DNA of 64,000 nucleotides from Thermoplasmata archaeon (GCA_023140195.1 JAGLME010000032.1:52220-116219), one strand, 5' to 3'. Numbered from the stretch's first letter, positions 963 through 61,351 are shown. Made by a program: numbers and translations. The notes: a model not told the origin generated them from the letters alone.

Positions 963-1871
963 TTGGGAGTGTTTGAACCGGAAGAGATAGAAGAGGAAGA
1001 AGAGGAGAAGAAGGAAGAAAAGCCATCCCTCATTGGCTACGGCCTCCATGTAGAACACGATGAGCTTCAGAGGGTTCTGCCATCTGGGGCCGATACAGAT
1101 TATCACCTCAAGCTTGAGAACACCGGGGATCATGACGACACCTATGCTCTGAAACTCGACCTCATATTCGCTGAGGAGGACGAGGGTGCCATGGAATGGT
1201 CCATCAGGATATCGGGCCTGAAAGAAGGTCTCTGGGATGTCACCCTGACCGGCGAGACAGAGAAGAGTATTAGTGTGAAGAAAGGCGACTCCAAACCCAT
1301 CGCCTTGAAAGTCGTTGCTCCCAAGAATCCCCAATACGGCTCCCGGGCCAACGTCATCCTCACGGTAATGTCAACAGGGGATGCAGCTGTCTCAGAGACG
1401 ATAACCACGGTTACCTCTGTAAGACAATCGATTCTGGCCGTCAAGACCTCGATAGGACACGAGAAATCGGTCGCCAAGTCGATAGCCAGCAGGGCTAAGC
1501 GTCAGGTTTCAGGCATTTTCTCAGTCCTTTCCCCTCCCACCCTCAGAGGCTACGTCCTAGTGGAGTCCATTAACCCGGATGCGCTGGAGCGCATAGTGAA
1601 GGGGATCAGGAGGGCCAGAGGCATCGTCAAGGGTGAGACCACCTTCAAGGAGATAGATCATTTCCTCACACCTCAGCCCTTGGTCTCGGGCGTCATGGAA
1701 GGAGATATCGTGGAGCTCGTGGCCGGTCCGTTCAAAGGGGAGAAGGCGAGGGTGCAACACATCGACGAGAGCAAGGAGGAGATTACCGTTGAACTGTTCG
1801 AATCAATGGTCCCTATACCAGTTACGGTCAGGGGCGATCACGTCAGAGTGCTTGAGAAGGAGGAAGGATAG
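963..1871 (+). CDS. spt5: Transcription elongation factor Spt5 (NusG) with an unusual ~150-aa N-terminal extension. A TTG start follows a GGGGAGG Shine-Dalgarno. The canonical NGN domain begins near aa 157 ([15 protein letters not shown]...), and the KOW motif ([18 protein letters not shown]) is C-terminal.
   Basis: NGN and KOW motifs are recognisable. The GGGGAGG-N6-TTG context supports the long form. An internal Met (aa 136) is an alternative start. Confidence 0.85.
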
Positions 1872-5746: not shown

Positions 5747-5889
5747 GCCCGTAACGGTTCAGGCACAATCCGATCCCGAATTCGACTGGACCTGGACATC
5801 TTTATATTCTCTTATCTATTTCACCCGTTGGTGATGAACGGACTCTTGCTGAGCCTTTCGGGGCTGTGATGAGGATCTTGAGTGCTGAC

Positions 5890-6228
5890 TCAGGCCTTTC
5901 CTGTGACTTTCTTCTTTTCCCTGTTCCTTCTCTGCTTGGCGTTGAAACCCGTGGCCCTTTCCATGAAGGCGTTGTAGTTCTGTATTGTCTTGAGAGCCGT
6001 TGCATCATCCGTGCCCGGATTCATCTCTGTATCCACGAACAGCAGCTTGCCGTCAGTCCACACTGCCAGCTTCTTGAGGGCTCCCCATGAAGCCTCGATC
6101 CTCTCATCCTTCTCTTCCGCTTCTCCAAAAACATCTATGACCAGTTCCTTGAGCTTCTCTCCTTCAATGTTCTTGAAATGGCCCCTTTTAATGTCGAACG
6201 TCTGCATCGGTCCACCACCCATTTTCAT
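5890..6228 (-). CDS. Hypothetical small protein (~113 aa) downstream of the radical-SAM gene and probably co-transcribed with it. The internal start MKMGGGP at 6228 is preferred over the long ORF start at 6327, which would overlap the upstream gene by 88 bp.
   Basis: An ORF with an 11-bp gap after the upstream stop. No recognisable domain from sequence alone. Confidence 0.5.
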   Translation of the reverse strand: MKMGGGPMQTFDIKRGHFKNIEGEKLKELVIDVFGEAEEKDERIEASWGALKKLAVWTDGKLLFVDTEMNPGTDDATALKTIQNYNAFMERATGFNAKQRRNREKKKVTGKA

Positions 6229-8984: not shown

Positions 8985-9056
8985 GCCACCGTAGCTTAGC
9001 TGGTAGAGCGGCTGATTTGTAATCAGCAGGTCGGGAGTTCAAATCTCTCCGGTGGC
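8985..9056 (+). tRNA. tRNA-Thr (anticodon UGU)
   Basis: 72-nt cloverleaf with acceptor GCCACCG/CGGUGGC, D-arm GCUU...GAGC, anticodon stem GCUGA/UCAGC with loop UUUGUAA, and T-arm GGGAG-UUCAAAU-CUCUC. CCA is not encoded. Confidence 0.85.
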
Positions 9057-9206
9057 TTCCATATCTGGTTATTTTCATTCTGTCATAATTATATAATACG
9101 TTCTTTGGACTACTTCCGAAGCGAAAAGAAGTAGGGTAATCCTACGTATGCATGTAGCGGCTTCAAACAATTTCTGTGGCACTGTTAGTTTGTTGGTTGT
9201 GTCAAA

Positions 9207-24269: not shown

Positions 24270-27200
24270 ATGGAAGAGGATTTCCTCCAATGGATCTCCA
24301 TCATCCCTGGTGTTGGACCTCGAAGAGCAAGGCGTCTCAAGGAAGCTGGATTAACATCTCCCGAATCGATTCGGGAAGCTTCGATTGAAGAGATAGCACT
24401 GATTGAAGGGATTGGACGAGAGTTGGCCAAGCGCCTCAAGGATTATGCCGAAGAGATCGTTCAGTTGAAGGAAGATCAGGCCTTCCTGTTCATTTGTCCG
24501 GAGTGTGGAGCATTCATAAGCCGGACCGCCAGGAAGTGTGAGGTCTGCGGTGCGGCGATTGAGGAAGGAGAGCTAGATGAGACGGGACTGGCACCCGAGC
24601 CCGAGCTTGTCAGTGAGGAGGAAGAGACTCCAGAGTTGTTCATTTGTCCAGCGTGTGGCAGGTTCATCGGGAAGGATGTTCGGACGTGTCCACATTGCAG
24701 TGCATCCTTCGACGAGGAACCAGAGAGGGAGGAAGACCTCGAGAAGCTCATGTCGGAGCTTGAGAAACAACTGGAAGAACTTGACGAAGACATCAAGACC
24801 CCCTTGGAGGACCTCGATGAGTACCTGAAGGAGGAGCCTCTGGAGATCGAGCCAGAAGAGAAGAAGGCGATAACCAAGGACTTCCTGAAGAGATGGCAGC
24901 GTGTCAGCGAGGAGGAAGAACAGGAGGGAACCAGGAGGTTCGAGGAAGAGCTCCGGCATTACGACAGCCTGCTCGATGCCGACCCCACACTTCAGAGGGC
25001 CTGGGAGAAGAAGGCCGTCATTCTGGTTGAACTTGGCCGGTTCGAGGAAGCAATAGAATGCTATGATATGCTCACTGAGCTGGATCCTGATAGGGAGGAG
25101 GAGTACAAACTTGAAGTCCTTAACCTGGTCAAGGAGATCGAAGGGTTGGCCGGGGCCCCGGTCGAACCAGAGGAAGCTCCGCCGCTGGATGAGACGGAAG
25201 CGATAGAGGGGGCAGTCGCCCATTATGAAGAACTTCTGCGGATAGATCCCTCATTGAAGCAGGCCTGGCAGACCCGAGGAGAACTGTTGGAGAAGCTGGG
25301 CCGACACGAAGAGGCCGTTGCCAGCTATGACAAGGCCATAGAATGCTCCAAGCAAGAGAGATTGCTCGAGATAATGGACCTGGCAAGCCTCAGGAAGAAA
25401 GGCTTGATGGAAGGCCGGACCTCCAGCAAGGCCCTGATACAACGTATGGGCAGGACCAATGGCCTCGTGAACGGCATGGTCAACGGACGCACCAACGGGC
25501 GCGTCAATGGCATGGTCAATGGAAAGACCAACGGCCTCGTGAACGGAAGGGGCAGGGTCAACGGCATGGTTAACGGCCTTGTCAATGGTCTGATGGACGG
25601 CGAGGGCAGGGTCAACGGCATGGTTAACGGACTGGTTAACGGCCTTGTCAATGGTATGGGAAGGGTCAACGGGCTGGTGAACGGCCTGATCAATGGTAAC
25701 GGGCTGGTGAACGGGAGAGGCTCGAAGCGCATGCCCCGGTTCAGAACTGCTGGTGTGGGATGGACCAGATCCCTTGGAGCAATTGCGGCTGTCCTTTCAA
25801 TACTGATCATCGTGCCGCTTCTTATTGGCCTGATTTCTCCCCACGCGCTTCCCTCTCCGATAACGGTCGACGGCAATTTCGATGACTGGGCCGGCGTCCG
25901 TGCTTTTGCTGATGGTCCGTTGGATCAAACTGCCAATCCTGACGTGAATGTCATTTCGTACAAGGCCGAGATACACAGGAACACCGCATTCGTCTATGCC
26001 AAGGTCGAGGGTGTCATACTCAACGGTTCTGGGAGTCAAGGCGTTGATTCAATCTACGTGTTCATAGATAGGGACAATGACGCGGACACAGGATATCTTG
26101 TTGCGGGACTGGGTGCCGACAGTCTGATTGAAATCGGGGGATGGAACAACTCAATCGAGAAGAGCGCCTTCTACACCTTCTCTGAGGGCTTTGAGAGGGA
26201 TGACTGGAGCTCATTCCGAAGGGTCCAACGGGTGAGCAGCGCGATTGGAAGCCAGGAGTTCGAGACGGCGTTCGGAGTGAACGGCGTCAAGGATCCCCGG
26301 ATATTCGTCACGACCTCGGACAATGTCGGTAACTTCGACTTCTCTGACACAATAGTCAGTCCAAAGAAGGATGTGCTGAAGGTTGAACAGACCACCATTG
26401 CCCCTGAAGTCATCCCCGTGATCGCGCCTGTCCATTTCCTTAAGATCGATCTTGACGCACGAAACGGGGCTGCTCGCATCTCCCAGATGAACATCACCAA
26501 GAATGGCAATGTCCTCGATTCGTCTGTCGCAATCGAGCTCGGAATAGACTTCGACGGCGATGAAATCCCCGATCAGCAGGTTTCCTCGGCGGTGTTCTTG
26601 ACCGATATGGCAACATTTGATGTCGACCTCGAAGTGATCGGGGGAATGACATTGATCGTTACTGCGGCACTCACAAATACGGCACCCTCAGCCAACCTCG
26701 GGCTCGGTTTGACAGGAATGACCACCAACGCAACCGTTTCTATCATTGATGAGTTCATCACCAATGTCTATCTTGAAGCCGATCCGATCGTCACAATAGA
26801 TGGGGCATTCGGTGACTGGTCCTCCATCAACAGGGTCCAGGATGGCAATGACGATGTGGTAATGAAGGGCCAACCGACAGCTTGGATTAATGAGAACGTC
26901 GATATCAGGAGCTACGCGGTTGATGTTGGTACGGAAGCTTCATTCTATATGAACGTGGACGGAAATATGCTCGGAGGTGTGGACATACCGATCTTCAGGC
27001 GGAGGCCAAGCGTTTCCCCCGTATTCTTGGACAGCGACCGGGATTCTGTGCCCGATGACTTCGACTTTTACGATTTCGATTTCAACAACGATGCGATTCC
27101 TGACAGACAGACTGGCAATGACTTCGACGAGGACGACATCCTGGATTATCCCTTGGGATCTGACTATTGGCTCAATACCACGATACCCATTGACTTCCCG

Positions 27201-28901
27201 GCGCCTTATGCGAATATCAATGTCTCGGTTTTCATCGGCCCGGTGACATACCCGGTCGTGAAAGGTCTGGATACGCTCTCAGTATACATTGATGTCGATA
27301 ATGACACCACCACCGGACTCTCCATGATCCTGAACAGCCAATCATACGGAATGGACAACCTCTTGGTGGTATCCGGGAGGAACGGTATTGCTCATGTAGC
27401 AGGATTGTACGGGTTCGTCACTGGTCACATTCCCTGGGAATATGTGGAAGATATCTCCAGTCTAGCCTTCGATACCAGGTCGATGGAACTCTCTGTTCCT
27501 CTGACTTCCTTGCAGCTTAGCACCGGCTTCTCGGTGGTGTTCAATCTCATGGACTGGCAAGGCGATTTCGACGTCTCCGACCAGGCTACGGGTAGGTCTC
27601 GAAGCCCTTCCACTGGTACGAGATCTCCAGCTGGTGACAATGTCGTTTTCAACGAGATTTATTCAGTCACTGCAACAAATGAGTGGTTCGAACTTGTGAA
27701 TCCAACTTCCAGCGCAATCAACCTGAATAACTGGGCGGTCGAGATAAAGAGCAAAGGAAAATGGACAAACATCCACACTTTTGGCGCCGTGTCGATTGGA
27801 GCTTGGCTGAGCGGAAGTGAGTACTTGGACGTCGACCTGCCACAGAACTCCATCAAGGACAAGCCTGTGAACATCCGTCTATTGGACTCGACAGGGACTG
27901 TAGTGGATGAAACCAAGCTTCCCAAGCTCAAACCGGGGGAGAGCTGGGCTCGGCTCAAGGATGAAACAGATGGAAAGCCCGAGGACACGGACGATGACTC
28001 GACTGACTGGTATGTGTCTATATCACCAACAAAGGGCAAGTACAATGACAGGAAACGCCCGATAATAGCCGTGGAGAAGACCTCCAACACCGGAACTGCA
28101 GCTCCAGGGGATCTGATTACGTACACCATCTACTACAACAACACAGGGGATGGCATCTCGAAGGACATATGGATAAATGACACTCTACCATCAGAAGTCA
28201 CTTTCGTCTCCTCTTCTGAAACGCCCGTTGGGTCCTCCGGCAGCACATACTACTGGGAATTCACGAACGCCGCTCCCGGGTCATCAAACTCATTCACCGT
28301 GACCGTTCGAGCTAATGACGGACTTACGGACGGAACGGCGTTCAACAACTACGTGGAACTGGATTATACGGACGTGTTCCGGCAAGCCATGGAATGGTCA
28401 AGTTCGAACAAGACCATGGTCGTTGAGCGTCCGGTCATCTCTGTGATTAAGGTCTCAGACGTGTCCGATGGGGGGATTGGCGACACGATCACCTACACCA
28501 TCTATTACAACAACACCGGCAACGGGACGGCAGGCCATGTGTGGGTCAACGACACCATTCCGATCTTCACCACCTTCCAGTCTTCCAGCGTTCCCTACGA
28601 GTCCCAAGCCGGGCTGACTTATGTGTTCCACTTCTACGACGTGGCGCCCGGATCCAACTCGTTCACAATCTCGGTGACGGTCAACATGACGGCCCCAGAC
28701 GGAATCGACCTGGTGAACTTGGCTGTCTTGGATTACACCACCGCGAACGAATACCCCCTGGAAAGCAGCAGTGACACGGCCATCGTCCACGTTCCCGAGT
28801 TCGATGCCTTTCTTATCCCGATAATCAGCGTGGTCGTCATCTTCATGTGGAGGAACAAGAGGGCGAAGAAGCGCAAAGAAGAGGATTCTGAAAAAGAGTG
28901 A
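24270..28901 (+). CDS. Giant (1543 aa) chimeric membrane protein with a cytoplasmic N-terminal half and an extracellular C-terminal half. Cytoplasmic: HhH motif(s), two C4 zinc ribbons, acidic coiled-coil, TPR repeats and about 18 tandem xVNGx pentapeptide repeats. A single TM helix follows. Extracellular: repeated DUF11/CARDB-like beta-sandwich domains, a lamin-tail domain (LTD), then a C-terminal PEF-CTERM-like sorting signal (PEF + TM + Arg/Lys tail).
   Basis: HhH (IPGVGPRRARRLKEAGL; IEGIGRELAKRL). Zn-ribbons (FICPECG...CEVCG; FICPACG...CPHC). TPRs (AWEKKAVILVELGRFEEAIECYD). TM (LGAIAAVLSILIIVPLLIGLIS) after a KRMPRFR positive patch. LTD (VVFNEIYSV..EWFELVNPTSSAINLNNWAVE). DUF11-like (ITYTIYYNNTGDG...) twice. 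C-terminal VPEFDAFLIPIISVVVIFMWRNKRAKKRK. Own TATA box about 27 bp upstream. Confidence 0.8.
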   Translation: MEEDFLQWISIIPGVGPRRARRLKEAGLTSPESIREASIEEIALIEGIGRELAKRLKDYAEEIVQLKEDQAFLFICPECGAFISRTARKCEVCGAAIEEGELDETGLAPEPELVSEEEETPELFICPACGRFIGKDVRTCPHCSASFDEEPEREEDLEKLMSELEKQLEELDEDIKTPLEDLDEYLKEEPLEIEPEEKKAITKDFLKRWQRVSEEEEQEGTRRFEEELRHYDSLLDADPTLQRAWEKKAVILVELGRFEEAIECYDMLTELDPDREEEYKLEVLNLVKEIEGLAGAPVEPEEAPPLDETEAIEGAVAHYEELLRIDPSLKQAWQTRGELLEKLGRHEEAVASYDKAIECSKQERLLEIMDLASLRKKGLMEGRTSSKALIQRMGRTNGLVNGMVNGRTNGRVNGMVNGKTNGLVNGRGRVNGMVNGLVNGLMDGEGRVNGMVNGLVNGLVNGMGRVNGLVNGLINGNGLVNGRGSKRMPRFRTAGVGWTRSLGAIAAVLSILIIVPLLIGLISPHALPSPITVDGNFDDWAGVRAFADGPLDQTANPDVNVISYKAEIHRNTAFVYAKVEGVILNGSGSQGVDSIYVFIDRDNDADTGYLVAGLGADSLIEIGGWNNSIEKSAFYTFSEGFERDDWSSFRRVQRVSSAIGSQEFETAFGVNGVKDPRIFVTTSDNVGNFDFSDTIVSPKKDVLKVEQTTIAPEVIPVIAPVHFLKIDLDARNGAARISQMNITKNGNVLDSSVAIELGIDFDGDEIPDQQVSSAVFLTDMATFDVDLEVIGGMTLIVTAALTNTAPSANLGLGLTGMTTNATVSIIDEFITNVYLEADPIVTIDGAFGDWSSINRVQDGNDDVVMKGQPTAWINENVDIRSYAVDVGTEASFYMNVDGNMLGGVDIPIFRRRPSVSPVFLDSDRDSVPDDFDFYDFDFNNDAIPDRQTGNDFDEDDILDYPLGSDYWLNTTIPIDFPAPYANINVSVFIGPVTYPVVKGLDTLSVYIDVDNDTTTGLSMILNSQSYGMDNLLVVSGRNGIAHVAGLYGFVTGHIPWEYVEDISSLAFDTRSMELSVPLTSLQLSTGFSVVFNLMDWQGDFDVSDQATGRSRSPSTGTRSPAGDNVVFNEIYSVTATNEWFELVNPTSSAINLNNWAVEIKSKGKWTNIHTFGAVSIGAWLSGSEYLDVDLPQNSIKDKPVNIRLLDSTGTVVDETKLPKLKPGESWARLKDETDGKPEDTDDDSTDWYVSISPTKGKYNDRKRPIIAVEKTSNTGTAAPGDLITYTIYYNNTGDGISKDIWINDTLPSEVTFVSSSETPVGSSGSTYYWEFTNAAPGSSNSFTVTVRANDGLTDGTAFNNYVELDYTDVFRQAMEWSSSNKTMVVERPVISVIKVSDVSDGGIGDTITYTIYYNNTGNGTAGHVWVNDTIPIFTTFQSSSVPYESQAGLTYVFHFYDVAPGSNSFTISVTVNMTAPDGIDLVNLAVLDYTTANEYPLESSSDTAIVHVPEFDAFLIPIISVVVIFMWRNKRAKKRKEEDSEKE
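25450..25725 (+). repeat. In-frame 15-bp tandem repeat array (~18 copies) encoding (L/M/R)VNG(x) pentapeptides within the 24270..28901 CDS
   Basis: Consensus ggc-(m)tg-gtc/a-aac-ggc repeated. Protein: NGLVNGMVNGRTNGRVNGMVNGKTNGLVNGRGRVNGMVNGLVNGLMDGEGRVNGMVNGLVNGLVNGMGRVNGLVNGLINGNGLVNG. Confidence 0.75.
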
Positions 28902-29002: not shown

Positions 29003-29139
29003 CCAAAGGTTCACGACCCCCGAAGGGGCTAAGCTTCCCGTGGGCTCGCGCACCACAGTACCGCAGAGAACGTAGGCGGGCTTAACTTCTGGGTTCGGGA
29101 TGAGACCAGGTGTATCCCCACCGCTATGGCCGTCATACC
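29003..29139 (-). rRNA. rrf: 5S ribosomal RNA, isolated and not linked to 16S/23S. Ends are approximate.
   Basis: The minus-strand sequence aligns to archaeal 5S from loop A through GGGAAGC (GGCCATAGCGGTGGGGATACACCTGGTCTCATCCCGAACCCAGAAGTTAAGCCCGCC...GGTACTGTGGTGCGCGAGCCCACGGGAAGC). The 3'-terminal portion is atypical and contains a CCCCUUCGGGGG hairpin. Confidence 0.75.
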
Positions 29140-44755: not shown

Positions 44756-45004
44756 TTACCTCCTTATTATCAATCTATACGCCTTTGCCTTGCCTGCGGT
44801 CTCGCTAGCCCGAGTTATCTCGACGACCATGCCCTCCTTGACCTCTTGGCCCTGACCCAGAATCTTGATGCACGGGTCCGTGAACTTGATCTTGGGGAGC
44901 TGTTCCTTGGAGATCTTTAGGTCAGAGATGACCTTCTGCAACTGTTTTTCATTCAACAACCTATGCTCTGGGACCAATTGGTGTTCCATAACGTTGAAGG
45001 GCAT
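44756..45004 (-). CDS. rpoH: DNA-directed RNA polymerase subunit H (Rpo5)
   Basis: 82 aa (HQLVPEHRLLNEKQL...). First gene of the rpoH-B-A'-A'' operon. Confidence 0.9.
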   Translation of the reverse strand: MPFNVMEHQLVPEHRLLNEKQLQKVISDLKISKEQLPKIKFTDPCIKILGQGQEVKEGMVVEITRASETAGKAKAYRLIIRR

Positions 45005-45056
45005 ATTCTACCTCTGGGTTTTCTCTCCTGGGGGGCGTTCGACCATGTGGGTTTGA

Positions 45057-45241
45057 CGGGCCCGCGGGGAATTTCGAGTCCTCCTGTGTCGGAGTTTCTA
45101 TTCGAACCCCGGACCACCTGGTTTCTTTCTAACTGGGTCGCGCAGCTTGTCTCTTCGATCACGTTAGATAAAAGCCAGATGCTCTTTCTAGGGAGTTTTG
45201 TCACTCAGACAAGAACTCCAACCTAGCTGAGCTACGGGCCC
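45057..45241 (-). tRNA. Intron-containing tRNA (185 nt). It has a canonical acceptor/D-arm, a probable ~50-nt intron at 37/38 (anticodon tentatively GAG, i.e. Leu), an unusually long region between the anticodon and T arms, and a ~30-nt insertion with a BHB-like hairpin inside the T-loop.
   Basis: Reverse complement: GGGCCCG-UA-GCUC-AGCUAGGUUG-GAGU-U-CUUGU-CUGAGU[..intron..]G-ACAAG ... C-CGGGG-UUCGAAU[AGAAACUCCGACACAGGAGGACUCGAAAU]U-CCCCG-CGGGCCC-G. Acceptor and T stems pair perfectly. The anticodon assignment is uncertain. Confidence 0.6.
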
Positions 45242-45479
45242 TACGCTTCTCCAGGCAAGCATGCGAACTGTAGCGATTGCTAAACACCCTTATTAACTTT
45301 TTGGCCGGACGGTCATTTGATCGGTCGATTTTCCGTTTTCTTGTATAAATTCAAAGAGTAAGATATTAATCCAAGGATAAAAACCCAAAAAAACAATAAA
45401 TATAAATATGAGTGCTCAAAACAGCCCTGGAATCCGATAAAATCTTTATATTAAGCCATTATTCTTAGGACGGGTTCAA

Positions 45480-49700: not shown

Positions 49701-50705
49701 ATGAACGCCAAGGAGGCCCTGCCCAGATATTTCCGTGTTCTGGACGAGAAGGAACTGCCCTATTACATGATATGCAAGGGGGTTCCAGTGCGGTCATCTT
49801 TGGATTCTGAGACATACCTGCTTTGGGAGGAGCACGCAGAGCTTGTGGAGAAGGTCAGATCGATCAGGGTGCCCTCCCCGGTTGCTGAGACGAACCTGCT
49901 GGATCTGAAGATCGAGCTTGCGAGAAGGATGCTAAATCCCTGCCGTCTCTGCGAAAGGAAATGCAACGTGAACAGGTTGGATGGGGAGGCGGGGTACTGC
50001 AGGGTCAAGGAGTCCAAGGTCTCATCCAAGTTCGTGCACTGGGGCGAGGAGCCGGAGCTTGTGCCTTCGTACACCATCTTCTTCTCCAGATGCACCTTCG
50101 AATGCGTTTTCTGTCAGAACTGGGACATAAGCCAGAGGGATACTGGACAATACATTTCAACGGACGATCTGGCAAACTCGGTGGAGAGGATGTTAGGAGG
50201 CGTGCGGAACGTTAACTGGGTAGGTGGGGATCCAACACCAAATCTGGTCTACATTCTGGAGGTTCTGAAGAGCTGCAACGCCAACATACCCCAAGTCTGG
50301 AACTCGAACATGTACCTGACCGAAGATGCAATGGCTCTCTTGGATTGCATCACGGATGTGTACCTTGCTGACTTCAAGTATGGAAATGACAAGTGTGCTG
50401 GAAGACTATCCCGGATAACGAGATACTTCGAGGTCGTTTCAAGGAATCATGCGATTGCCAATAAGCAAGCTGGGATCGTCTTGAGGCACCTGGTTCTGCC
50501 TGGTCATATTGAGTGCTGTACGAAACCAATAATGGATTGGATCGCGGAGAACCTGGATACATCTCGAATAAGGGTAAATGTGATGGACCAGTACCGTCCA
50601 GAGTACAAAGCCAGAGATTTCGAAAGATTGGAGAAGCGTCTGTCCCACAAGGAGTTCCTTCAGGCATATCGTTATGCCGAGGGTCTAGGTCTGAACATCA
50701 TCTGA
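49701..50705 (+). CDS. Radical SAM protein, PflX-like (COG1313; pyruvate-formate-lyase-activating-enzyme-related)
   Basis: N-terminal CxxC..C..C (CRLCERKCNVNRL...YCRV) and a radical SAM CX3CX2C (FSRCTFECVFCQNWD). Confidence 0.75.
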   Translation: MNAKEALPRYFRVLDEKELPYYMICKGVPVRSSLDSETYLLWEEHAELVEKVRSIRVPSPVAETNLLDLKIELARRMLNPCRLCERKCNVNRLDGEAGYCRVKESKVSSKFVHWGEEPELVPSYTIFFSRCTFECVFCQNWDISQRDTGQYISTDDLANSVERMLGGVRNVNWVGGDPTPNLVYILEVLKSCNANIPQVWNSNMYLTEDAMALLDCITDVYLADFKYGNDKCAGRLSRITRYFEVVSRNHAIANKQAGIVLRHLVLPGHIECCTKPIMDWIAENLDTSRIRVNVMDQYRPEYKARDFERLEKRLSHKEFLQAYRYAEGLGLNII

Positions 50706-53700
50706 TTCCTCCAATGATTGTCCCTCAGCATCAACGTTATCGGGTTCATCCTCTTTGTCAGAATCCCTCGTTTTCCTATACCAGAGGTAGGGAATTAGAA
50801 GTAAGACAACAGCGACTATGATAACCAGAATCACCACAGGATACAGCAACACCGGGGGACCATCAGGGTGAGGGTGACAGCTTCCCGTTTGGACAGTCGT
50901 GTATGATGGTATGAAGTCGGTTTCGTTGGATGACACGACAAGATTGTATGCCCCACCACACTCGACACTGTCTGGAATAACGAATGTGGTTGTGATGATT
51001 CCATTCTCTCCGCTGACAGTGAAGGCTTCTGTACCGACTAACGTCGTGTCGAGGCTCTCAAGTCGAAGAATCAATTCGACACCTTCGACCCCTTGTTCTG
51101 ACCCAACCTCGCGCACCCAACCATCGACAAGGATTTCCTCTCCTCCATCGATCCTCTGGCCCTCAGTTGGGTTGTAGACTGACACGTAGATGTTTGTGGG
51201 AGTCGGATTGTAGGTTTCCTGGACATAGAACGTTTCATCCAGCGAAGCCCAATTTCCACTTGAATCCACTGCCCATATCGTCACGTTGTAGTATCCAGCC
51301 AAAGGATATATCTGGCCGAAGTAGTACGGCGTCCCTGGATTCATGCTGTTGTTGGACACCTGCAGATTCGGATCCTCAATGACGATCCAAACACCCGTGA
51401 GTTCGTAGTTGTCGGTGACAATAGCAGAAATGTTGACGTATTCGTCTTGTTCAGGATTAGTGGGAACGTATCCCCAATTGTCTATTGTGGGTGGCGTCAA
51501 GTCCACCACTTGGAACTGCCCCGTCGTCCAATTCCAGTTCCCGGAGGAATCTACCGCCCACACCGTCATGTTGTAATATCCAGCCATGGGGTATATTTGG
51601 CCGAAATAGTAAGGCGTCCCTGGATTCATGCTGTTGTTGGACACTTGCAGATTCGGATCCTCAATGACGATCCAAACACCCGAGAGCTCATAGTTGTCCG
51701 CTACAATGGCAGAGATGTTTATGTAGTCGTCTTGTTCGGGGTTAGTAGGACTGGATTCAAGATTGATAATTGTGGGTGGCGTCAAGTCCACCACTTGGAA
51801 CTGTCCCGTCGTCCAATTCCAGTTCCCAGAGGAATCCACTGCCGATATATTGAAATCATAGGTTCCAAGCACATCCCAATTGCTGACATTGTAGAATCTG
51901 GTTCCCAACGAGTCCAGAGTCGTGTTGATCGGAGGCAATATAGGGGGCGTGAACTCGATCCTAGCGCCGAACACTCCAAAATCGTCGAAGACATCAGCTG
52001 ATATGTTGATGCTGTTGAACACCTCCAGTGGGGAAGGAATCTGAGTGAGGTTCTCTATGACGGGTGGTTGTGTATCCGGTGCAAGTGCGGTCCTGAAGCT
52101 CCAGCTGTAGAGCGAAGCCAAACTGTTACCTGGGTCTGAATCGTCAGTTGCTAGTGTTGTAAAGTTCGCTGTATACCAACTGGCAACAGCCAGGTCAAAG
52201 TCCGGGTTGAACGAAAAGACTGTACCCATCCAGCTCATTTGCCCAGTAACCGTTGTCCAAGAGGCATTGTCCTTGAGGGAGAACGATACGTTCGTTATCG
52301 GCATGTTCATCAGTTCGCTCCAGGTCGACTGCAGTAGAGCATTCGTTGGTACATTCTGTGTCCCGTCCGACGGAGCTACCGAGATTACGATAGGTCGCGT
52401 CGAATCGATCTCGAACACGGTGCTTGTTCCCGAACCAGTTGCACCTTCTGAGTCCACCACCTCAGCCTCAATGTACGCCGTGGTTGAGTCCACCATCGGC
52501 AAAGTCCAGAGATATGGTGAGGAGTCCCCAGCGATTGGCCCCACTATCGGAAGCCAAGGAGCACCCCCGTTCAGAGAGTAGTTGAGCCAGACTTGAAGAG
52601 AAGAGGACGGATTCTCCGTATCGGAAGCAGTGAAAGAGACGAAATGGTTCGAATTGCCAGTCCAGACTTCTCCACCTGCAGGTATGTCCACCAACACTGT
52701 CGGTGCTACGTTCTGGGTTTCAGTCGTGAACGAGAAGCTCAGCATGCTATCAAGCGGATTTCCTGGTGAAGAAGCATCCACAGCGGTCTGAAGAAGAGTC
52801 ACGAAATATGTTTGGCCATACAAGAATGAGTTGTGAGTCCCGGTAAGGTTGTCATTCGGATAGGTGATCGAGGACCATGCCCAAGACCATCCGAATGGAT
52901 TTGGTATCACGCCCATGGATGATATGACCGAGTTAGTGTCCATACCCTCATTGAATTGGATGAAAATAGGCTGATCAATTGGCATATCAATGGCCCCGTT
53001 CTCGGGAATCGTATAGAGCACGTTCGGAGGCGTCGAATCGATATCTGAGATCATTATCTCATCCCAGTTCACCAGACCTCCCGGGTCAAAGACCGTTAGG
53101 TTGATTGTCGCATCAGTCGCGTCGATCGATGGCGTTGTCCAAAGATAAGAGTTCGGATTTGCAGTTCCAGCCATGGGTCCCGCGATGGTGCCCGTTGAAG
53201 CTCCAGTGTTGTAGCTGTAGTTGAGATAGACGAGGAGGTTGGAGTTAGGGCTGTCGTCGCTCATGTTCCACCAAATGGTGTGAGCGGTATTGCCCGTCCA
53301 ATTCTGGAGACCTGTAGGATAACTGAATGAGACCTGTGGTCTGAAAACTGGCGGTGCTCCCTGCTTGTAGACGCGCACTCCTGACGTGCTTGTGGCAGCT
53401 ATGTCTTGTACCCCATCATTGTCCATATCTCCGAAGTCCACTCCCCAGTACTTTCCCGTGGTGGGAATCCCTGACACTCCCGGATTGGACCAGATCATCG
53501 AACCGCTTGCTCCCCCATTACCTCTCATATATCCAATACCTGTCGCCCCCGCGTTATCCACGCTCGTGAAGATCAGGTCAGAGTTGCCATCGAGGTTGGT
53601 GTCGCCAATATCCACTCCACCGAACCGACCTGTCGCCGGGAGACCGGTATCTGCTGGTGTCCAGATCATGGTTCCTCCAGCTCCTCCGTTGCCCAGCCAA

Positions 53701-55700
53701 ACATGCATTCCTTCCCATCCTGCAGTGAACCCAGTACCGACAAGATCGGGATTCCCGTCATGATCAACATCAGCGAAATCGAGGCCCAGCCAGACGTTGG
53801 TTGTTGGCAACCCTGTATCATTCCTCGTCCAGCTCCCTGGTAGACCAGTTCCATCCCCGGTCCAGAGTTGAGTGCCCAGGTTGTTCATCGCGCTGGCGGC
53901 AAAATCCAGATGGCCGTCATGGTTGACGTCCGCAACTGCAACATCATCCACGTTTATGATCTCTCCAGGCGGCCCCATGTCCGTGGTCCAAGTGAAATCC
54001 CCGTTCCCCAAGTAGATCATCGGACCCCAGTTGTTCTCCCAGTATCCGGTTATCACGTCTAGATTGCCATCATGGTTAAGATCGACGAGCTCCAATCCCG
54101 CACCAGACTCTGCGGCAACCAGCCCCATCTCGGTCCATGACCCAGCCCCATCTCCGCTGTATGCATGGATTCCGTTGCTTCCTCCGCCGCCGTCTTGGGC
54201 GACTATCAGATCCATCGTCCCATCGTGGTCAATGTCCGCGAACCTCAAACCGCTGAAGTCCCCTGATGTTGGCAGGCCATTTGAGGCGAGCGTCCAAACA
54301 CCGGTGCCATCCCCCAGGAAGACCCTGATCCCTTGGTTTTGTCCCTGGAAGCTTGTGATGCCGATGTCAAGTCTTCCGTCGTGATTCACATCTGAGAACT
54401 GAACATCCGCCCATGTATTGAGCGTGGGCAGGTTGATTGAAGCTGAAACGTACGAGTCAATGATGAAATCGGCTCTGTCGTTCTGCCATATCTCGACACC
54501 TTGACTAAGGCCTGCTACGAAGTCGATTTTTCCGTCGTTGTTGTAGTCTCCAGCATCCACGGCTAGGTAGCTTCCGGCTGGAAGTCCCGTGGAGGTCTCT
54601 GTCCAGTCCATTGTTCCTCCGTCGCCGCCGTCGCCCAACCAAGACCTCAATCCTCCGCCGAAGTAACGCCCTGCGAATATGTCCAGATCTCCGTCGTCGT
54701 CGATGTCTTCCAGTGCAACCCCGAGCCATGAGAACGTGTTCGTCTCAAGTCCGGCTGAGTTCTCGGTCCAGACCATCGATCCTCCGGCGCCTCCGTTGCC
54801 GAGCCAGACCCTTACCCCGTTGCCCGAATAATAGGCGGTCGAGACCACATCCAAGTTTCCATCGAGGTTGACGTCACCGAGATCGACGCTGGCGTAGGGC
54901 TCCGTTTCCGGCAGACCTGTCCCCGTGTAAGCGTCGGTCCATAATGCCGAAGGGCCACTGAGCCCGTTCCCGGTCCACGCCTTTATTCCGTTGTTTCTGT
55001 CCGCACAGACGATGTCGGGCTTGCCATCGTGGTCAATGTCCCCCACAGCAGGCTTCCAGAAGGCCCCTATCGCAGGAAGGCCTGTGGATGATTCTGTCCA
55101 TACAATGCTCCCACCGGCACCGCCATCTCCCGTGTAGACGTGAACCCCGTTGTCGTCACCTGCGATAATGTCCATCTTGCCATCGAGGTTCATATCCGCG
55201 GCGGTTGCAGAGAACCATGATCCTGGGTCGCTGTCAAAGGTCCATGTCATCGAACCCCCCGCACCCCCATCTCCGAGATACACTCCATCGCCAGCCAGGT
55301 CCAAGTTCCCATCGTTGTTGAAGTCTGCCAGAATGACCTCATATGAATTCCCCGCAGGGATCCCGGTGGACTCCTCTGAAAAGGACCCAGCTCCATCGCT
55401 GACATAGACATGCATCCAACCCGTGGCTGTGGCCGCGGCTACGTCCAGGTTGCCGTCGTTATTGACATCTCCATATTCTACGGTGTAGAACTCTCCGGTC
55501 GATGGGAGCCCGTTGGTGATAGGCGTCCAGTGACTCTCTATGGGCTCGGAAAGATGGGGAACAACATCGTTCAATGTACTGCTAGATGGACTTTCAAGTG
55601 CAGGAAGCAAGGCACTGGCTGCAAACAAGCAACAGATCAAGATTGCCATTGCTCTGGGCGAGCTTGCCCACAATCGGCTCGTGCGTTTGCGTATGCCCAT
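50685..55700 (-). CDS. Giant (1671 aa) secreted cell-surface protein. It has a signal peptide, at least 13 FG-GAP/integrin-alpha-type beta-propeller repeats (D-x-[DN]-x-D-G-x-x-D), then tandem Ig/fibronectin-like domains, then a C-terminal TM anchor with an acidic cytoplasmic tail.
   Basis: Signal peptide MAILICCLFAASALLPA. Repeats such as DFNNDGNLDLAG, DVNHDGRLDIG, DIDHDGTMDLIV. C-terminal LLYPVVILVIIVAVVLLLIPYLWYRK plus a DE-rich tail. Confidence 0.85.
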   Translation of the reverse strand: MGIRKRTSRLWASSPRAMAILICCLFAASALLPALESPSSSTLNDVVPHLSEPIESHWTPITNGLPSTGEFYTVEYGDVNNDGNLDVAAATATGWMHVYVSDGAGSFSEESTGIPAGNSYEVILADFNNDGNLDLAGDGVYLGDGGAGGSMTWTFDSDPGSWFSATAADMNLDGKMDIIAGDDNGVHVYTGDGGAGGSIVWTESSTGLPAIGAFWKPAVGDIDHDGKPDIVCADRNNGIKAWTGNGLSGPSALWTDAYTGTGLPETEPYASVDLGDVNLDGNLDVVSTAYYSGNGVRVWLGNGGAGGSMVWTENSAGLETNTFSWLGVALEDIDDDGDLDIFAGRYFGGGLRSWLGDGGDGGTMDWTETSTGLPAGSYLAVDAGDYNNDGKIDFVAGLSQGVEIWQNDRADFIIDSYVSASINLPTLNTWADVQFSDVNHDGRLDIGITSFQGQNQGIRVFLGDGTGVWTLASNGLPTSGDFSGLRFADIDHDGTMDLIVAQDGGGGSNGIHAYSGDGAGSWTEMGLVAAESGAGLELVDLNHDGNLDVITGYWENNWGPMIYLGNGDFTWTTDMGPPGEIINVDDVAVADVNHDGHLDFAASAMNNLGTQLWTGDGTGLPGSWTRNDTGLPTTNVWLGLDFADVDHDGNPDLVGTGFTAGWEGMHVWLGNGGAGGTMIWTPADTGLPATGRFGGVDIGDTNLDGNSDLIFTSVDNAGATGIGYMRGNGGASGSMIWSNPGVSGIPTTGKYWGVDFGDMDNDGVQDIAATSTSGVRVYKQGAPPVFRPQVSFSYPTGLQNWTGNTAHTIWWNMSDDSPNSNLLVYLNYSYNTGASTGTIAGPMAGTANPNSYLWTTPSIDATDATINLTVFDPGGLVNWDEIMISDIDSTPPNVLYTIPENGAIDMPIDQPIFIQFNEGMDTNSVISSMGVIPNPFGWSWAWSSITYPNDNLTGTHNSFLYGQTYFVTLLQTAVDASSPGNPLDSMLSFSFTTETQNVAPTVLVDIPAGGEVWTGNSNHFVSFTASDTENPSSSLQVWLNYSLNGGAPWLPIVGPIAGDSSPYLWTLPMVDSTTAYIEAEVVDSEGATGSGTSTVFEIDSTRPIVISVAPSDGTQNVPTNALLQSTWSELMNMPITNVSFSLKDNASWTTVTGQMSWMGTVFSFNPDFDLAVASWYTANFTTLATDDSDPGNSLASLYSWSFRTALAPDTQPPVIENLTQIPSPLEVFNSINISADVFDDFGVFGARIEFTPPILPPINTTLDSLGTRFYNVSNWDVLGTYDFNISAVDSSGNWNWTTGQFQVVDLTPPTIINLESSPTNPEQDDYINISAIVADNYELSGVWIVIEDPNLQVSNNSMNPGTPYYFGQIYPMAGYYNMTVWAVDSSGNWNWTTGQFQVVDLTPPTIDNWGYVPTNPEQDEYVNISAIVTDNYELTGVWIVIEDPNLQVSNNSMNPGTPYYFGQIYPLAGYYNVTIWAVDSSGNWASLDETFYVQETYNPTPTNIYVSVYNPTEGQRIDGGEEILVDGWVREVGSEQGVEGVELILRLESLDTTLVGTEAFTVSGENGIITTTFVIPDSVECGGAYNLVVSSNETDFIPSYTTVQTGSCHPHPDGPPVLLYPVVILVIIVAVVLLLIPYLWYRKTRDSDKEDEPDNVDAEGQSLEESDDVQT
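51230..51830. repeat. Two near-identical 285-bp tandem repeats (with a third diverged copy upstream) inside the FG-GAP protein gene, encoding 95-aa Ig-like modules (AVDSSGNWNWTTGQFQVVDLTPPTI...)
   Basis: Long near-identical DNA blocks at about 51313-51560 and 51598-51845. Shadow ORFs on the opposite strand repeat the same peptide. Confidence 0.65.
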
Positions 55701-59159: not shown

Positions 59160-61351
59160 GCTATCTCAACTCCTTCTCTGCCGAGTTTGCCTGTGAAATC
59201 CACATACTTCTCCAACTTCTTCTTTTCGGTTCCGCGGACCTTGTCCATTGCCCTTTGGAAGTACTTGTTTGATATCTTCCTTTTCGCTATCCTCTCTTCG
59301 CTGAGGTCGCCCCCTTCCAGAACGAAGTCTCTAATCGAAAGCATGGTGGCCTCATTGCTAACACTCGCTATGTCGGCACCTGTGAAACCTTCTGAGTCTC
59401 TGGCGAGAACATCTATGTCCACATCCTTCGCTATAGGCTTGTCCCTTGTGTGGATTTCGAATATCTTCTTTCTCGCTTCCAGGTCCGGTACGGGTATGTA
59501 TACTAGTCGATCGAATCTCCCCGGTCTCAGCAGTGCTGGGTCGATGATGTCAAGCCTATTCGTTGCAGCGATGACAGTCACGTTGTGAAGATCTTCCAGG
59601 CCGTCCAGTTCTGTTAGTATCTGAGAGATGACCCTCTCAGTCACATGCGAGTCGGAGTTGCTTCCTCTGACGGGTGCAATGGCGTCCAGCTCGTCAAGGA
59701 AGATGACGCACGGGCTTGCCTGCTTTGCCTTCCTGAACGTCTCTCTGACCGCTTTCTCGCTCTCTCCGACCCACTTCGACAGGAACTCGGGGCCCTTCAC
59801 ACTGATGAAGTTGGACTCCGCCTCCGTCGCTACCGCCTTTGCGAGGAGCGTCTTTCCGGTTCCAGGTGGACCGTACAGCAGCACCCCTTTTGGCGGTTTT
59901 GCGTTCATGTGTTCGAACAGCTTCCCATATTTCAGGGGCCACTCTACCGTCTCCATAAGCTCTTGCTTGGCACCTTCCAGTCCTCCTACATCTGTCCACC
60001 GGACATCCGGCGATTCGATGAGGACCTCCCTCAAGGCAGATGGGGCCATCTCTCTAAAAGCGTCATTGAAATCATCAACTGTGACGATTATCTTGTTCAG
60101 TATTTCGACCGGAATGCTCTCGACTTCCAGATCGATCTCGGGCAGTATCCTTCGAAGTGCCCTGATCGCGGCTTCCTTGGCGAGGGCCGCCAGGTCCGCA
60201 CCCGCGTAACCATGGGTCATGTTGGCGAACTTCTTCAGGTCGATGTCCTCGGCCAGGGGCATTCCTCTGGTGTGGATCAGTAGAACCTCATGCCGTCCCC
60301 TCTTGTCAGGGATACCGATCTCGATCTCCCTGTCGAACCTTCCCGGTCTTCTGAGTGCCGGGTCAAGTGAATCAGGGCGATTGGTAGCTCCGATCACGAC
60401 GACTTTTCCTCGGGCCTTCAAACCATCCATCAACGCCAGAAGCTGGGCCACGACCCTTCTCTCCACCTCTCCGCTGACCTCATCTCTCTTTGGTGCAATG
60501 GAATCTATCTCATCGATGAATATGATGCTGGGGGCGTTTTCCTCTGCCGTGTTGAAGATCTCCCTGAGGTTCTCTTCGCTCTGTCCGTAGTACTTGGACA
60601 TGATCTCCGGTCCAGACAATGAATGGAAATTTGCTTGGGTCTCACTCGCGACGGCCTTTGCGAGAAGGGTCTTGCCCGTTCCCGGCGGACCGTGCAGTAG
60701 CAGTCCCTTGGGCGCTTCCACGCCAAGCTTGTCAAAAAGTTCAGGATGTCTCAGGGGCAGTTCGATCATCTCCCTGACCTTCTTCACCTCGTCTCCGAGG
60801 CCTCCTATGTCCTCGTAACTGACCTTAGGGAGTGACAAAGTCTCCTCTTTCACCGGCTTATCGCTTATCGTGACCCGTGTGGTTCTCTGGATTATGATCG
60901 CATCTGATGAGGGGGAGAACGAGACCACCACGAGGTCGATCTTCCTCCCCATCACATTCAGCTCTACGATATCTCCCCTGGAGATCGCTCTTCCTTCCAG
61001 TATCTGGGATATGTACTGCTCTCCGCCCACTATCCTCAAGGGCTCGGTCAAAGCCAGTTTCACCTTCTCCGCCATCTTCGCCCTTGTTTTCCTGATTCCC
61101 ACCTTCTCGTCAATTCCTACGTCAGCGTTCTTTCGGATCGATCCGTCAATCCTGATGACGCCCCTGTTCTCATCCTCTGGGTAGCCGGGCCAGCAGATCG
61201 CGACGGTCTTCTTTTTGCCTTCGACTAGGACGACGTCCCCTGTTGTGAGGCCAAGGATGTTCACCACCGCTGGGTCGATCCTGGCTATTCCCCTTCCGAC
61301 ATCTTTGGGCTTTGCCTCTGCAACTCTTAGAATCTTATCATCTTCACTCAT
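59156..61351 (-). CDS. cdc48: CDC48/VCP-like AAA+ ATPase (N-domain plus two AAA modules)
   Basis: Two Walker A sites (GPPGTGKT x2), two SRH regions, and a CDC48 N-terminal double-psi barrel. Confidence 0.95.

Follow-up and report, generated by a model that had tools for sequence, protein, structure and literature searches.

The locus

The window, by which we mean the whole 64,000-nucleotide stretch of Thermoplasmata DNA that was analysed, carries on its minus strand a 185-nt gene running from 45241 (G1) to 45057 (the discriminator G73), exactly the bounds that an earlier note on this DNA had given to a tRNA gene. The precursor starts with GGGCCCGUAGCUCAG and ends with CCCCGCGGGCCCG. We believe with high confidence, on the basis of sequence, that this is a tRNA-Lys(UUU) gene with three bulge-helix-bulge (BHB) introns, at positions 20/21, 37/38 and 59/60. 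Exons and inserts were delimited by hand and are numbered in precursor coordinates 1-185; they and the neighbouring features are listed in the order of transcription.

45290..45303, minus: putative promoter, an A-rich BRE-like stretch plus TATA-like TTAATAA
45221..45241, minus: exon 1, precursor 1-21, 21 nt, GGGCCCGUAGCUCAGCUAGGU; acceptor 5' strand, U8 A9, D-stem 5' strand, D-loop up to U20
45186..45220, minus: intron 1, precursor 22-56, 35 nt, D-loop 20/21
45169..45185, minus: exon 2, precursor 57-73, 17 nt; A21, D-stem 3' strand, A26, anticodon-stem 5' strand, C32 U33 U34 U35 U36 A37
45123..45168, minus: intron 2, precursor 74-119, 46 nt, canonical 37/38
45101..45122, minus: exon 3, precursor 120-141, 22 nt; A38, anticodon-stem 3' strand, variable loop UGGUC, T-stem 5' strand, T-loop U54-A59
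45071..45100, minus: intron 3, precursor 142-171, 30 nt, T-loop 59/60
45057..45070, minus: exon 4, precursor 172-185, 14 nt; U60, T-stem 3' strand, acceptor 3' strand, discriminator G73; CCA not encoded
44756..45004, minus: rpoH (RNA polymerase subunit H/Rpb5), start codon 52 nt downstream of the tRNA
Then, after rpoH: rpoB, rpoA', rpoA'' and a NusA-like KH protein (Pfam RNA_pol_Rpb5_C, Rpb2 domains, Rpb1_5 and KH across the set)

Deleting the three inserts leaves the 74-nt GGGCCCGUAGCUCAGCUAGGUAGAGCAUCUGGCUUUUAACCAGGUGGUCCGGGGUUCGAAUCCCCGCGGGCCCG, which ARAGORN calls as tRNA-Lys(ttt) with a standard cloverleaf. The gene exceeds this mature form by 111 nt, in line with the excess of about 110 nt already noticed, and the acceptor stem (GGGCCCG/CGGGCCC) and T stem (CGGGG/CCCCG) are both present as had been described. 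The spliced product has the D-loop AGCUAGGUA, an anticodon stem UCUGG/CCAGG of 5 bp, the anticodon loop CUUUUAA and the T-loop UUCGAAU. It looks as a tRNA-Lys(UUU) should, with UUU at 34-36 in a 7-nt loop, U33, a purine at 37 and a short variable loop. Folding the precursor RNA without constraints gives back the acceptor stem together with three extended arms; the energy is -74.8 kcal/mol, with z = -4.9 relative to shuffled sequences. With three BHB introns in one colinear gene this is a multiple-intron tRNA gene. It is not a split or permuted one, as the four exons are colinear on one strand inside 185 nt. Nor do the inserts look like group I or II introns; they are only 30-46 nt long, and Rfam reports nothing at the locus or close to it even at E <= 10.

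The earlier note had suggested a different identity, possibly tRNA-Leu(GAG), with an intact D arm, an intron at 37/38, extra sequence between the anticodon and T arms and an intron in the T-loop. This is not an unreasonable reading of the strand, since GCUC...GAGU can be paired as a D stem and UUGU-CUGAGUG-ACAA resembles an anticodon arm with GAG. However, position 37 would then be U, the discriminator is G, and a Leu-type long variable arm cannot be built. The GAG belongs to the D-loop intron, where it stands in the loop of the hairpin UUGUC-UGAGU-GACAA. This hairpin is variable: relatives either lack it or have something altogether different there, such as aggatggcgcagaaccgtcc in L012. Both the spliced product and the intronless orthologues described below are tRNA-Lys(UUU). 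We give tRNA-Leu(GAG) practically no chance. The error can be traced to the D-loop intron, which was missed; part of it was read as an anticodon arm, and this produced both the wrong anticodon and an insert that does not exist, as the variable loop is an ordinary 5 nt. The D arm is likewise not intact, for its 3' strand GAGC lies beyond the 35-nt intron and GCUC had been paired with intron sequence. What survives is that the gene has several introns (three), that one of them sits at 37/38 (a BHB intron of 46 nt), and that the T-loop holds an insert of 30 nt with a BHB, though the hairpin inside it is CUCC-N6-GGAG and not N7.

The splice motifs

We used the standard BHB geometry, in which a 4-bp central helix is flanked by two 3-nt bulges with cuts after the second bulge nucleotide, and in which the first two anticodon bases of a 37/38 intron sit in the central helix (PMC4090602). 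The model for the 37/38 intron obeys this rule, and both 20/21 and 59/60 are documented non-canonical intron positions (PMC4090602). As the earlier note had proposed to check, a BHB motif can be found at each junction: two are hBHBh' and one is HBh'. Intron 2 is a strict hBHBh', with the anticodon stem as outer helix, CUUU/AAAG as central helix and CUAAC/GUUAG as inner helix. Intron 3 is also hBHBh', with the T stem as outer helix, UUCG/CGAA in the centre and the bulges AA|U and AU|U; its inner helix in the window's sequence is 2 bp only, followed by an internal loop and then the hairpin already mentioned. Intron 1 is a relaxed HBh', with CUAG/CUAG in the centre, the 5' bulge G19-U20|U (G19-U20|N across homologues) and the inner helix GGAGUU/AACUCC. 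Its 3' splice site, AA|A21, falls in a 2x3 internal loop beside the D stem instead of a clean 3-nt bulge because A14-G15 stand between the central helix and the D stem.

A different register for the D-loop intron, UAGG/CCUA, was rejected; it would give an 11-nt D-loop with a variable residue, and its outer helix is no better. The register we chose gives an identical mature sequence in every homologue and agrees with the intronless orthologues. A box C/D-like GUGAUCGA in intron 2 was also dropped, as it is not conserved in L010 and L011.

Relatives with three, two, one and no introns

Relatives were retrieved with the N-terminal 400 aa of RpoB (RpoB-N), giving 80 genome loci with identities from 98% down to 57%. 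Their depositors label them Thermoplasmata, Methanomassiliicoccales, Thermoplasmatota, or generic Euryarchaeota or Methanobacteriota MAGs, and the record names of the clade's uncultured MAGs are of sediment or soil type. By its relatives the source lineage is uncultured Thermoplasmata / 'Methanomassiliicoccales'. The unsplit rpoB, the PolD large subunit and the unlinked 5S gene of the window agree with that placement, and the RpoH protein of the window is also encoded on identical metagenome contigs.

The tRNA lies directly upstream of rpoH in 80 of 86 related loci, which give 63 distinct sequences. Five of the other six loci are truncated or N-masked upstream, and the last (L056) is at a contig end and still has exons 2-4. 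Across the 63 the exons are near-invariant while the introns differ in both sequence and length, and the BHB geometry is kept in all of them. The D-loop insert is present in 63/63 (26-51 nt) and the T-loop insert in 62/63 (27-60 nt; all but L081), whereas the 37/38 insert is found in 34/63 (29-104 nt) and in one sub-clade only. The two non-canonical introns are therefore more widespread than the canonical one. The most extreme homologue is L043 (848-1136), a 289-nt gene from an A/T-rich genome whose introns measure 51, 104 and 60 nt; the central helix of intron 1 and that of intron 2 each contain a single mismatch.

The predicted junction of exon 1 and exon 2 was also sought in metagenomes. 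The scan returned 88 stretches, about 30 of which are uninterrupted 74-nt tRNA-Lys(UUU) genes in which exon 1 is contiguous with exon 2. In most of the intronless contigs that reach far enough downstream, rpoH-rpoB follows directly after the tRNA, and the RpoB-N of these contigs is 47-70% identical to that of the window. The intronless genes (L184, L135, L150 and others), in the same position and orientation as the gene studied here, match the predicted spliced product at 68-72 of 74 positions. Nearly all the differences are paired changes in stems, and L184 and L135 differ solely by G50-C64 -> A-U. They have the predicted CUUUUAA and UUCGAAU, neither of which was imposed by the search pattern. 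Unlike the intron-bearing gene they can be detected with Rfam: L184 (72/74) scores 72.4 bits with the tRNA model RF00005, whose gathering score is 29, while the same model does not detect the intron-bearing homologues L153, L081 and L040.

Intermediates exist as well. L153 has only the T-loop (59/60) intron, L081 has only the D-loop intron, and a large clade has these two without the third. The predicted splice junctions are in this way confirmed, in comparisons of genes, by relatives with fewer introns or none. The T-loop site is also used elsewhere: tRNA-Lys(CUU) genes on metagenome contigs (L128, L170, L158, L188, L130, L167 and L174) carry a 59/60 intron of 22-23 nt, a strict BHB with the central helix UUCG/CGAA, so this intron site is common to both lysine isoacceptors.

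Covariation

For each intron a fixed 42-nt junction window was taken, giving a gap-free alignment. The values are listed as the share of paired cells, the covariation score against shuffled alignments, the number of shuffles reaching it, and the paired share when the pairing is slid.

Intron 1: 94.4%; 0.228 against 0.082; 0/500; at most 45%
Intron 2: 95.4%; 0.333 against 0.193; 0/500; at most 56%
Intron 3: 88.2%; 0.233 against 0.143; 0/500; at most 72%, high because one clade has an extra unpaired base beside the inner helix

Pairs changed on both sides number 7, 6 and 7 for introns 1, 2 and 3. Double compensatory changes in inner helices include GGAGUU/AACUCC, GGAUGG/CCGUCC and AAGAAUAA/UUAUCUU. 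The exons take part too: in L084 and L085 the D-loop change U17->C is matched by A->G in the intron, and the central helix is kept as CCAG/CUGG. The pattern in these alignments is the one expected of spliced introns and not of a decaying gene.

It could still be argued that the locus yields no tRNA, being either a pseudogene derived from a tRNA or a tRNA gene that insertions have wrecked. In favour of this view, the standard finders, ARAGORN and Rfam, make no call on it. But a pseudogene would conserve neither the exons alone nor the pairings between exon and intron. Here the exons stay near-invariant down to 57% identity in the RpoB N-terminus while the inserts change freely, compensatory changes preserve both the BHB helices and the tRNA stems, and the locus occupies the syntenic slot that intact tRNA-Lys(UUU) genes fill in relatives. 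A pseudogene is in our opinion exceedingly improbable.

A subtler objection accepts the tRNA and its canonical intron and holds that the D-loop and T-loop inserts are not substrates of the splicing endonuclease EndA, being removed by some other route or retained as expansions. The objection has a basis, for the characterised EndA of the phylum, the alpha'2 enzyme of T. acidophilum, has a narrow specificity (PMC6379350) and the D-loop motif is relaxed. However, both inserts keep exactly the geometry of a BHB, the 4-bp helix and the bulges of 3 nt standing at constant distances from the junctions, and covariation maintains it. Neither matches a group I/II or other Rfam family, and a tRNA whose D and T loops kept these 30-35 nt would lose its elbow. 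This makes the objection very improbable, and we continue with three inserts predicted to be EndA substrates.

The RNA polymerase operon

The gene sits directly upstream of the rpoH operon, as the earlier note stated. The putative promoter lies about 49-62 nt upstream of the mature 5' end, and an A/T-rich box (TTAATAA, TTTAATA, ATTATATA, TTTAAATA) is found at a similar distance upstream in nearly all homologous loci. No TATA-like box is conserved besides this one, which stands about 50 nt before the tRNA. The 52-nt spacer between the tRNA and rpoH (45005-45056) has an SD-like AGAGGU and neither a T-run nor an A/T-rich box. Together these suggest that the transcript of the RNA-polymerase operon has the tRNA as its first element, and co-transcription with the rpoH operon is likely.

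In some related clades (L012-L036, L042, L068 and L072) the leader on the 5' side of the tRNA and the trailer on its 3' side are strongly complementary and extend the acceptor stem, forming a duplex of -41 to -45 kcal/mol (z down to -3.7) that resembles a processing stem. A fourth BHB in this helix was considered and rejected, as it lacks BHB geometry and, in the lineage of the window itself, the pairing does not stand out from chance (z ~0).

One may ask whether the tRNA, while real, has a second role in cis. The multi-intron precursor, structured and slow to mature, would then be an element for processing or stability of the rpoH-rpoB-rpoA mRNA, with cleavage by RNase P/Z or EndA setting the 5' end of the message and the introns retained for tuning. 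The order tRNA-Lys(UUU), rpoH, rpoB holds from 98% to about 47% RpoB-N identity, and the short spacer, the sole TATA-like box and the strong leader-trailer pairing of some relatives all fit the idea. However, intronless versions occupy the same slot, which means the introns are not needed for the synteny; the leader-trailer pairing is not seen above chance in the window's lineage; and the L043 spacer does have an A/T-rich box. We consider a cis role of this kind rather unlikely, and take the locus to be a tRNA gene with three introns that probably shares a transcript with its neighbours.

Gain and loss of the introns

Neighbour-joining (NJ) trees of RpoB-N (400 aa) carry no support values and are indicative only. 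In them the outgroups are intron-free, L084-86 have the D-loop and T-loop introns, L081 has the D-loop intron only, a small clade (L184/L135/L160/L175) is intronless, and L153 has the T-loop intron only. The main clade has the D-loop and T-loop introns, and the single sub-clade that includes the window adds the 37/38 intron. The D-loop introns share their ends (NGGA...UCCCUAGAA), so a single origin followed by losses is favoured by the sequences, though repeated gain may be the alternative. The 37/38 intron is the most restricted, which would make it probably the youngest of the three. Canonical tRNA introns are usually assumed to be the old ones, and the probable youth of this one runs against that assumption.

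Predicted splicing and the endonuclease

The following pathway is modelled on what is known of tRNA splicing in other archaea. Transcription would start from the BRE/TATA-like promoter about 50 nt upstream, with the tRNA probably the first element of the rpoH-rpoB-rpoA transcript. Each junction between exon and intron would fold into a BHB, in which the 3' end of the intron forms the central 4-bp helix with exon nucleotides: C16-G18 in the D-loop, C32-U35 in the anticodon loop and U54-G57 in the T-loop. EndA would make six cuts, one past the second nucleotide of every 3-nt bulge, and an RtcB-type ligase would join the four exons (21 + 17 + 22 + 14 nt) into the 74-nt tRNA, to which CCA would be added post-transcriptionally. 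We infer the cleavage, ligation and CCA addition from archaeal tRNA splicing as described elsewhere (PMC4090602, PMC6379350).

The difficulty with this pathway is the enzyme. Euryarchaeal EndAs of the alpha4 and alpha'2 types, including the alpha'2 enzyme of Thermoplasma, cut strict BHB motifs only (PMC6379350, PMC5829648), and relaxed motifs are cut only by EndAs with extra loops or with heteromeric or three-unit architectures (PMC5829648, PMC6379350). The conserved HBh' motif of the D-loop intron predicts an unusual EndA in this clade, one of broad specificity that tolerates relaxed substrates. The window contains no EndA that tblastn can find with the M. jannaschii enzyme (PDB 1a79) as query. 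An EndA profile search gave 5349 hits, and none of the best 120 of these 5349 could be assigned to the lineage. A family of 167-aa alpha4-like enzymes (P0107, P0075, P0058) and candidates of 247-385 aa were not linked to these MAGs, and the 385-aa family, considered as the lineage's EndA, was rejected when it turned out to be of the Micrarchaeota epsilon2 type.

That epsilon2-like three-unit family (L098:3592-4744; L099:4001-5158) comprises more than 100 clusters of proteins of about 385-390 aa, and comes from Micrarchaeota or Marsarchaeota where the source names an organism. On a 180-kb contig the gene is called as two ORFs of 88 aa and 247 aa, either a split enzyme or a frameshift.

The broader proposal is that non-canonical BHB introns, in part relaxed, have been carried stably by an order-level clade of Thermoplasmata in a tRNA gene that is essential and single. 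Either a broad-specificity EndA evolved in the clade or was acquired by it, or narrow enzymes can process the HBh' motif of the D-loop. In the first case there would be a new specificity loop or a new subunit architecture, independently evolved or acquired. We offer this proposal tentatively, as something possible but still on the doubtful side.

Comparison with other multi-intron tRNA genes

Multi-intron tRNA genes and non-canonical BHB introns are features of the Thermoproteales and a few other lineages. The earlier note had expected a lineage of that sort, but the organism is a Thermoplasmata archaeon. To our knowledge, reviews hold that Euryarchaeota with alpha4 or alpha'2 endonucleases carry only single, canonical introns with strict BHB motifs. 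Our searches of open-access papers turned up no report from Thermoplasmata or Methanomassiliicoccales of tRNAs with several introns or with introns at non-canonical sites. Multi-intron tRNAs have been described in Crenarchaeota (at most three introns, in Thermoproteales), Nanoarchaeum, M. kandleri, M. thermautotrophicus, Korarchaeum and ARMAN-1/2 (PMC4033280).

Among the closest parallels are the multiple-intron genes of Thermoproteales, for example the tRNA-Pro(UGG) of Pyrobaculum islandicum, which is interrupted at 25/26, 37/38 and 56/57 (Sugahara et al. 2007/2008, summarised in PMC4090602, PMC4033280). Like the Thermoproteales genes, ours has three BHB introns, the recorded maximum there: besides the canonical intron there is one in the D region and another in the T region, and strict and relaxed motifs are mixed. 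Unlike them, it is found in Thermoplasmata and not in a crenarchaeon with an (alpha-beta)2 EndA, and its non-canonical introns are at 20/21 and 59/60. In Thermoproteales introns transpose rapidly among many tRNAs, whereas the gene described here is an orthologue that has been inherited stably and has kept its syntenic position. Here it is the canonical intron that is the more restricted one, and the other tRNA of the window (Thr) is intronless.

ARMAN-2 (Ca. Micrarchaeum) has a 59/60 intron in pre-tRNA-Cys(GCA) and introns at 53/54 and 59/60 in pre-tRNA-Pro(GGG), which are cut by its epsilon2 EndA (PMC3239211). The likeness is in the 59/60 T-loop intron with the T stem as outer helix, and in having non-canonical, partly relaxed motifs in an archaeon outside TACK. 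ARMAN-2 belongs to a different phylum, however, and the epsilon2-type EndAs that we retrieved carry the depositors' labels Micrarchaeota/Marsarchaeota and could not be connected with the lineage studied here. The multi-intron tRNAs of Methanopyrus kandleri and Methanothermobacter are the euryarchaeal exceptions (PMC4033280), and the (alpha-beta)2 EndA of M. kandleri has a constrained specificity (PMC5829648). These too are organisms of Euryarchaeota grade in which a tRNA has either several introns or a relaxed motif, but they are isolated cases from (hyper)thermophilic methanogens, while the introns described here are conserved across an order-level set of uncultured MAGs.

How such genes escape annotation

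ARAGORN misses the unspliced gene with and without its intron mode, and the check by intron-mode ARAGORN that the earlier note suggested thus gave no call. Rfam misses it both at the gathering threshold and at E <= 10. Annotations and completeness estimates made with these tools for the MAGs of the clade would therefore list tRNA-Lys(UUU) as missing. Worse, such genes can be mis-annotated: ARAGORN -i called the one-intron tRNA-Lys homologue of L081 (205-311) a tRNA-Ser(aga) with a 12-nt intron, and in L033 (2880-3326) it reported an implausible tRNA-Glu with a 353-nt intron.

Over the whole window ARAGORN finds a single tRNA, tRNA-Thr(UGU) at 8985-9057, and Rfam finds this tRNA and a 5S rRNA. 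We scanned both strands with a pattern that required U8, G10, a T arm with TTCRA and a 7-bp acceptor stem free of mismatches, and that tolerated an insert in the T-loop; it returned the 185-nt locus and the known tRNA-Thr, and nothing else. No further hidden tRNA turned up in the window scan or in the 86 loci L001-L086. The tRNA-Thr (plus strand) is intronless and normally detected (71 bits), so not all tRNA genes of the genome are disrupted.

The 5S rRNA gene at 29018-29137 (minus strand, 74 bits) is isolated, with 16S and 23S not nearby. This fits the unlinked rRNA genes described in Thermoplasmatales and Methanomassiliicoccales (PMC4153887). Sub-threshold matches to archaeal C/D-box sRNA families of Rfam (sR2/sR5, GlsR14 and sR44; about 21 bits, E ~1-2) occur at 5827-5890 (plus), 1603-1663 (minus) and 61018-61070 (minus), and may be real guide RNAs or chance. 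Two large ORFs probably encode surface or envelope proteins: one of 1543 aa at 24270-28901 (plus), with HhH, zinc-ribbon, TPR, lamin-tail and DUF11 domains, and one of 1671 aa at 50685-55700 (minus), with eight FG-GAP repeats and Big_5 domains.

Conclusions

The three-intron tRNA is a known kind of gene in an unexpected lineage, with an unusually informative comparative series. It is conserved across many uncultured Thermoplasmata genomes, a group not previously noted for such genes. Orthologues with 0, 1, 2 and 3 introns at one chromosomal position make a test bed for the gain and loss of archaeal tRNA introns, and the locus yields a concrete prediction about the substrate range of the lineage's splicing endonuclease. 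If our tentative proposal about the clade is true, the series would let single gains and losses be dated, with the 37/38 intron the latest arrival, and either outcome for EndA would revise the rule by which EndA and tRNA introns are held to co-evolve.
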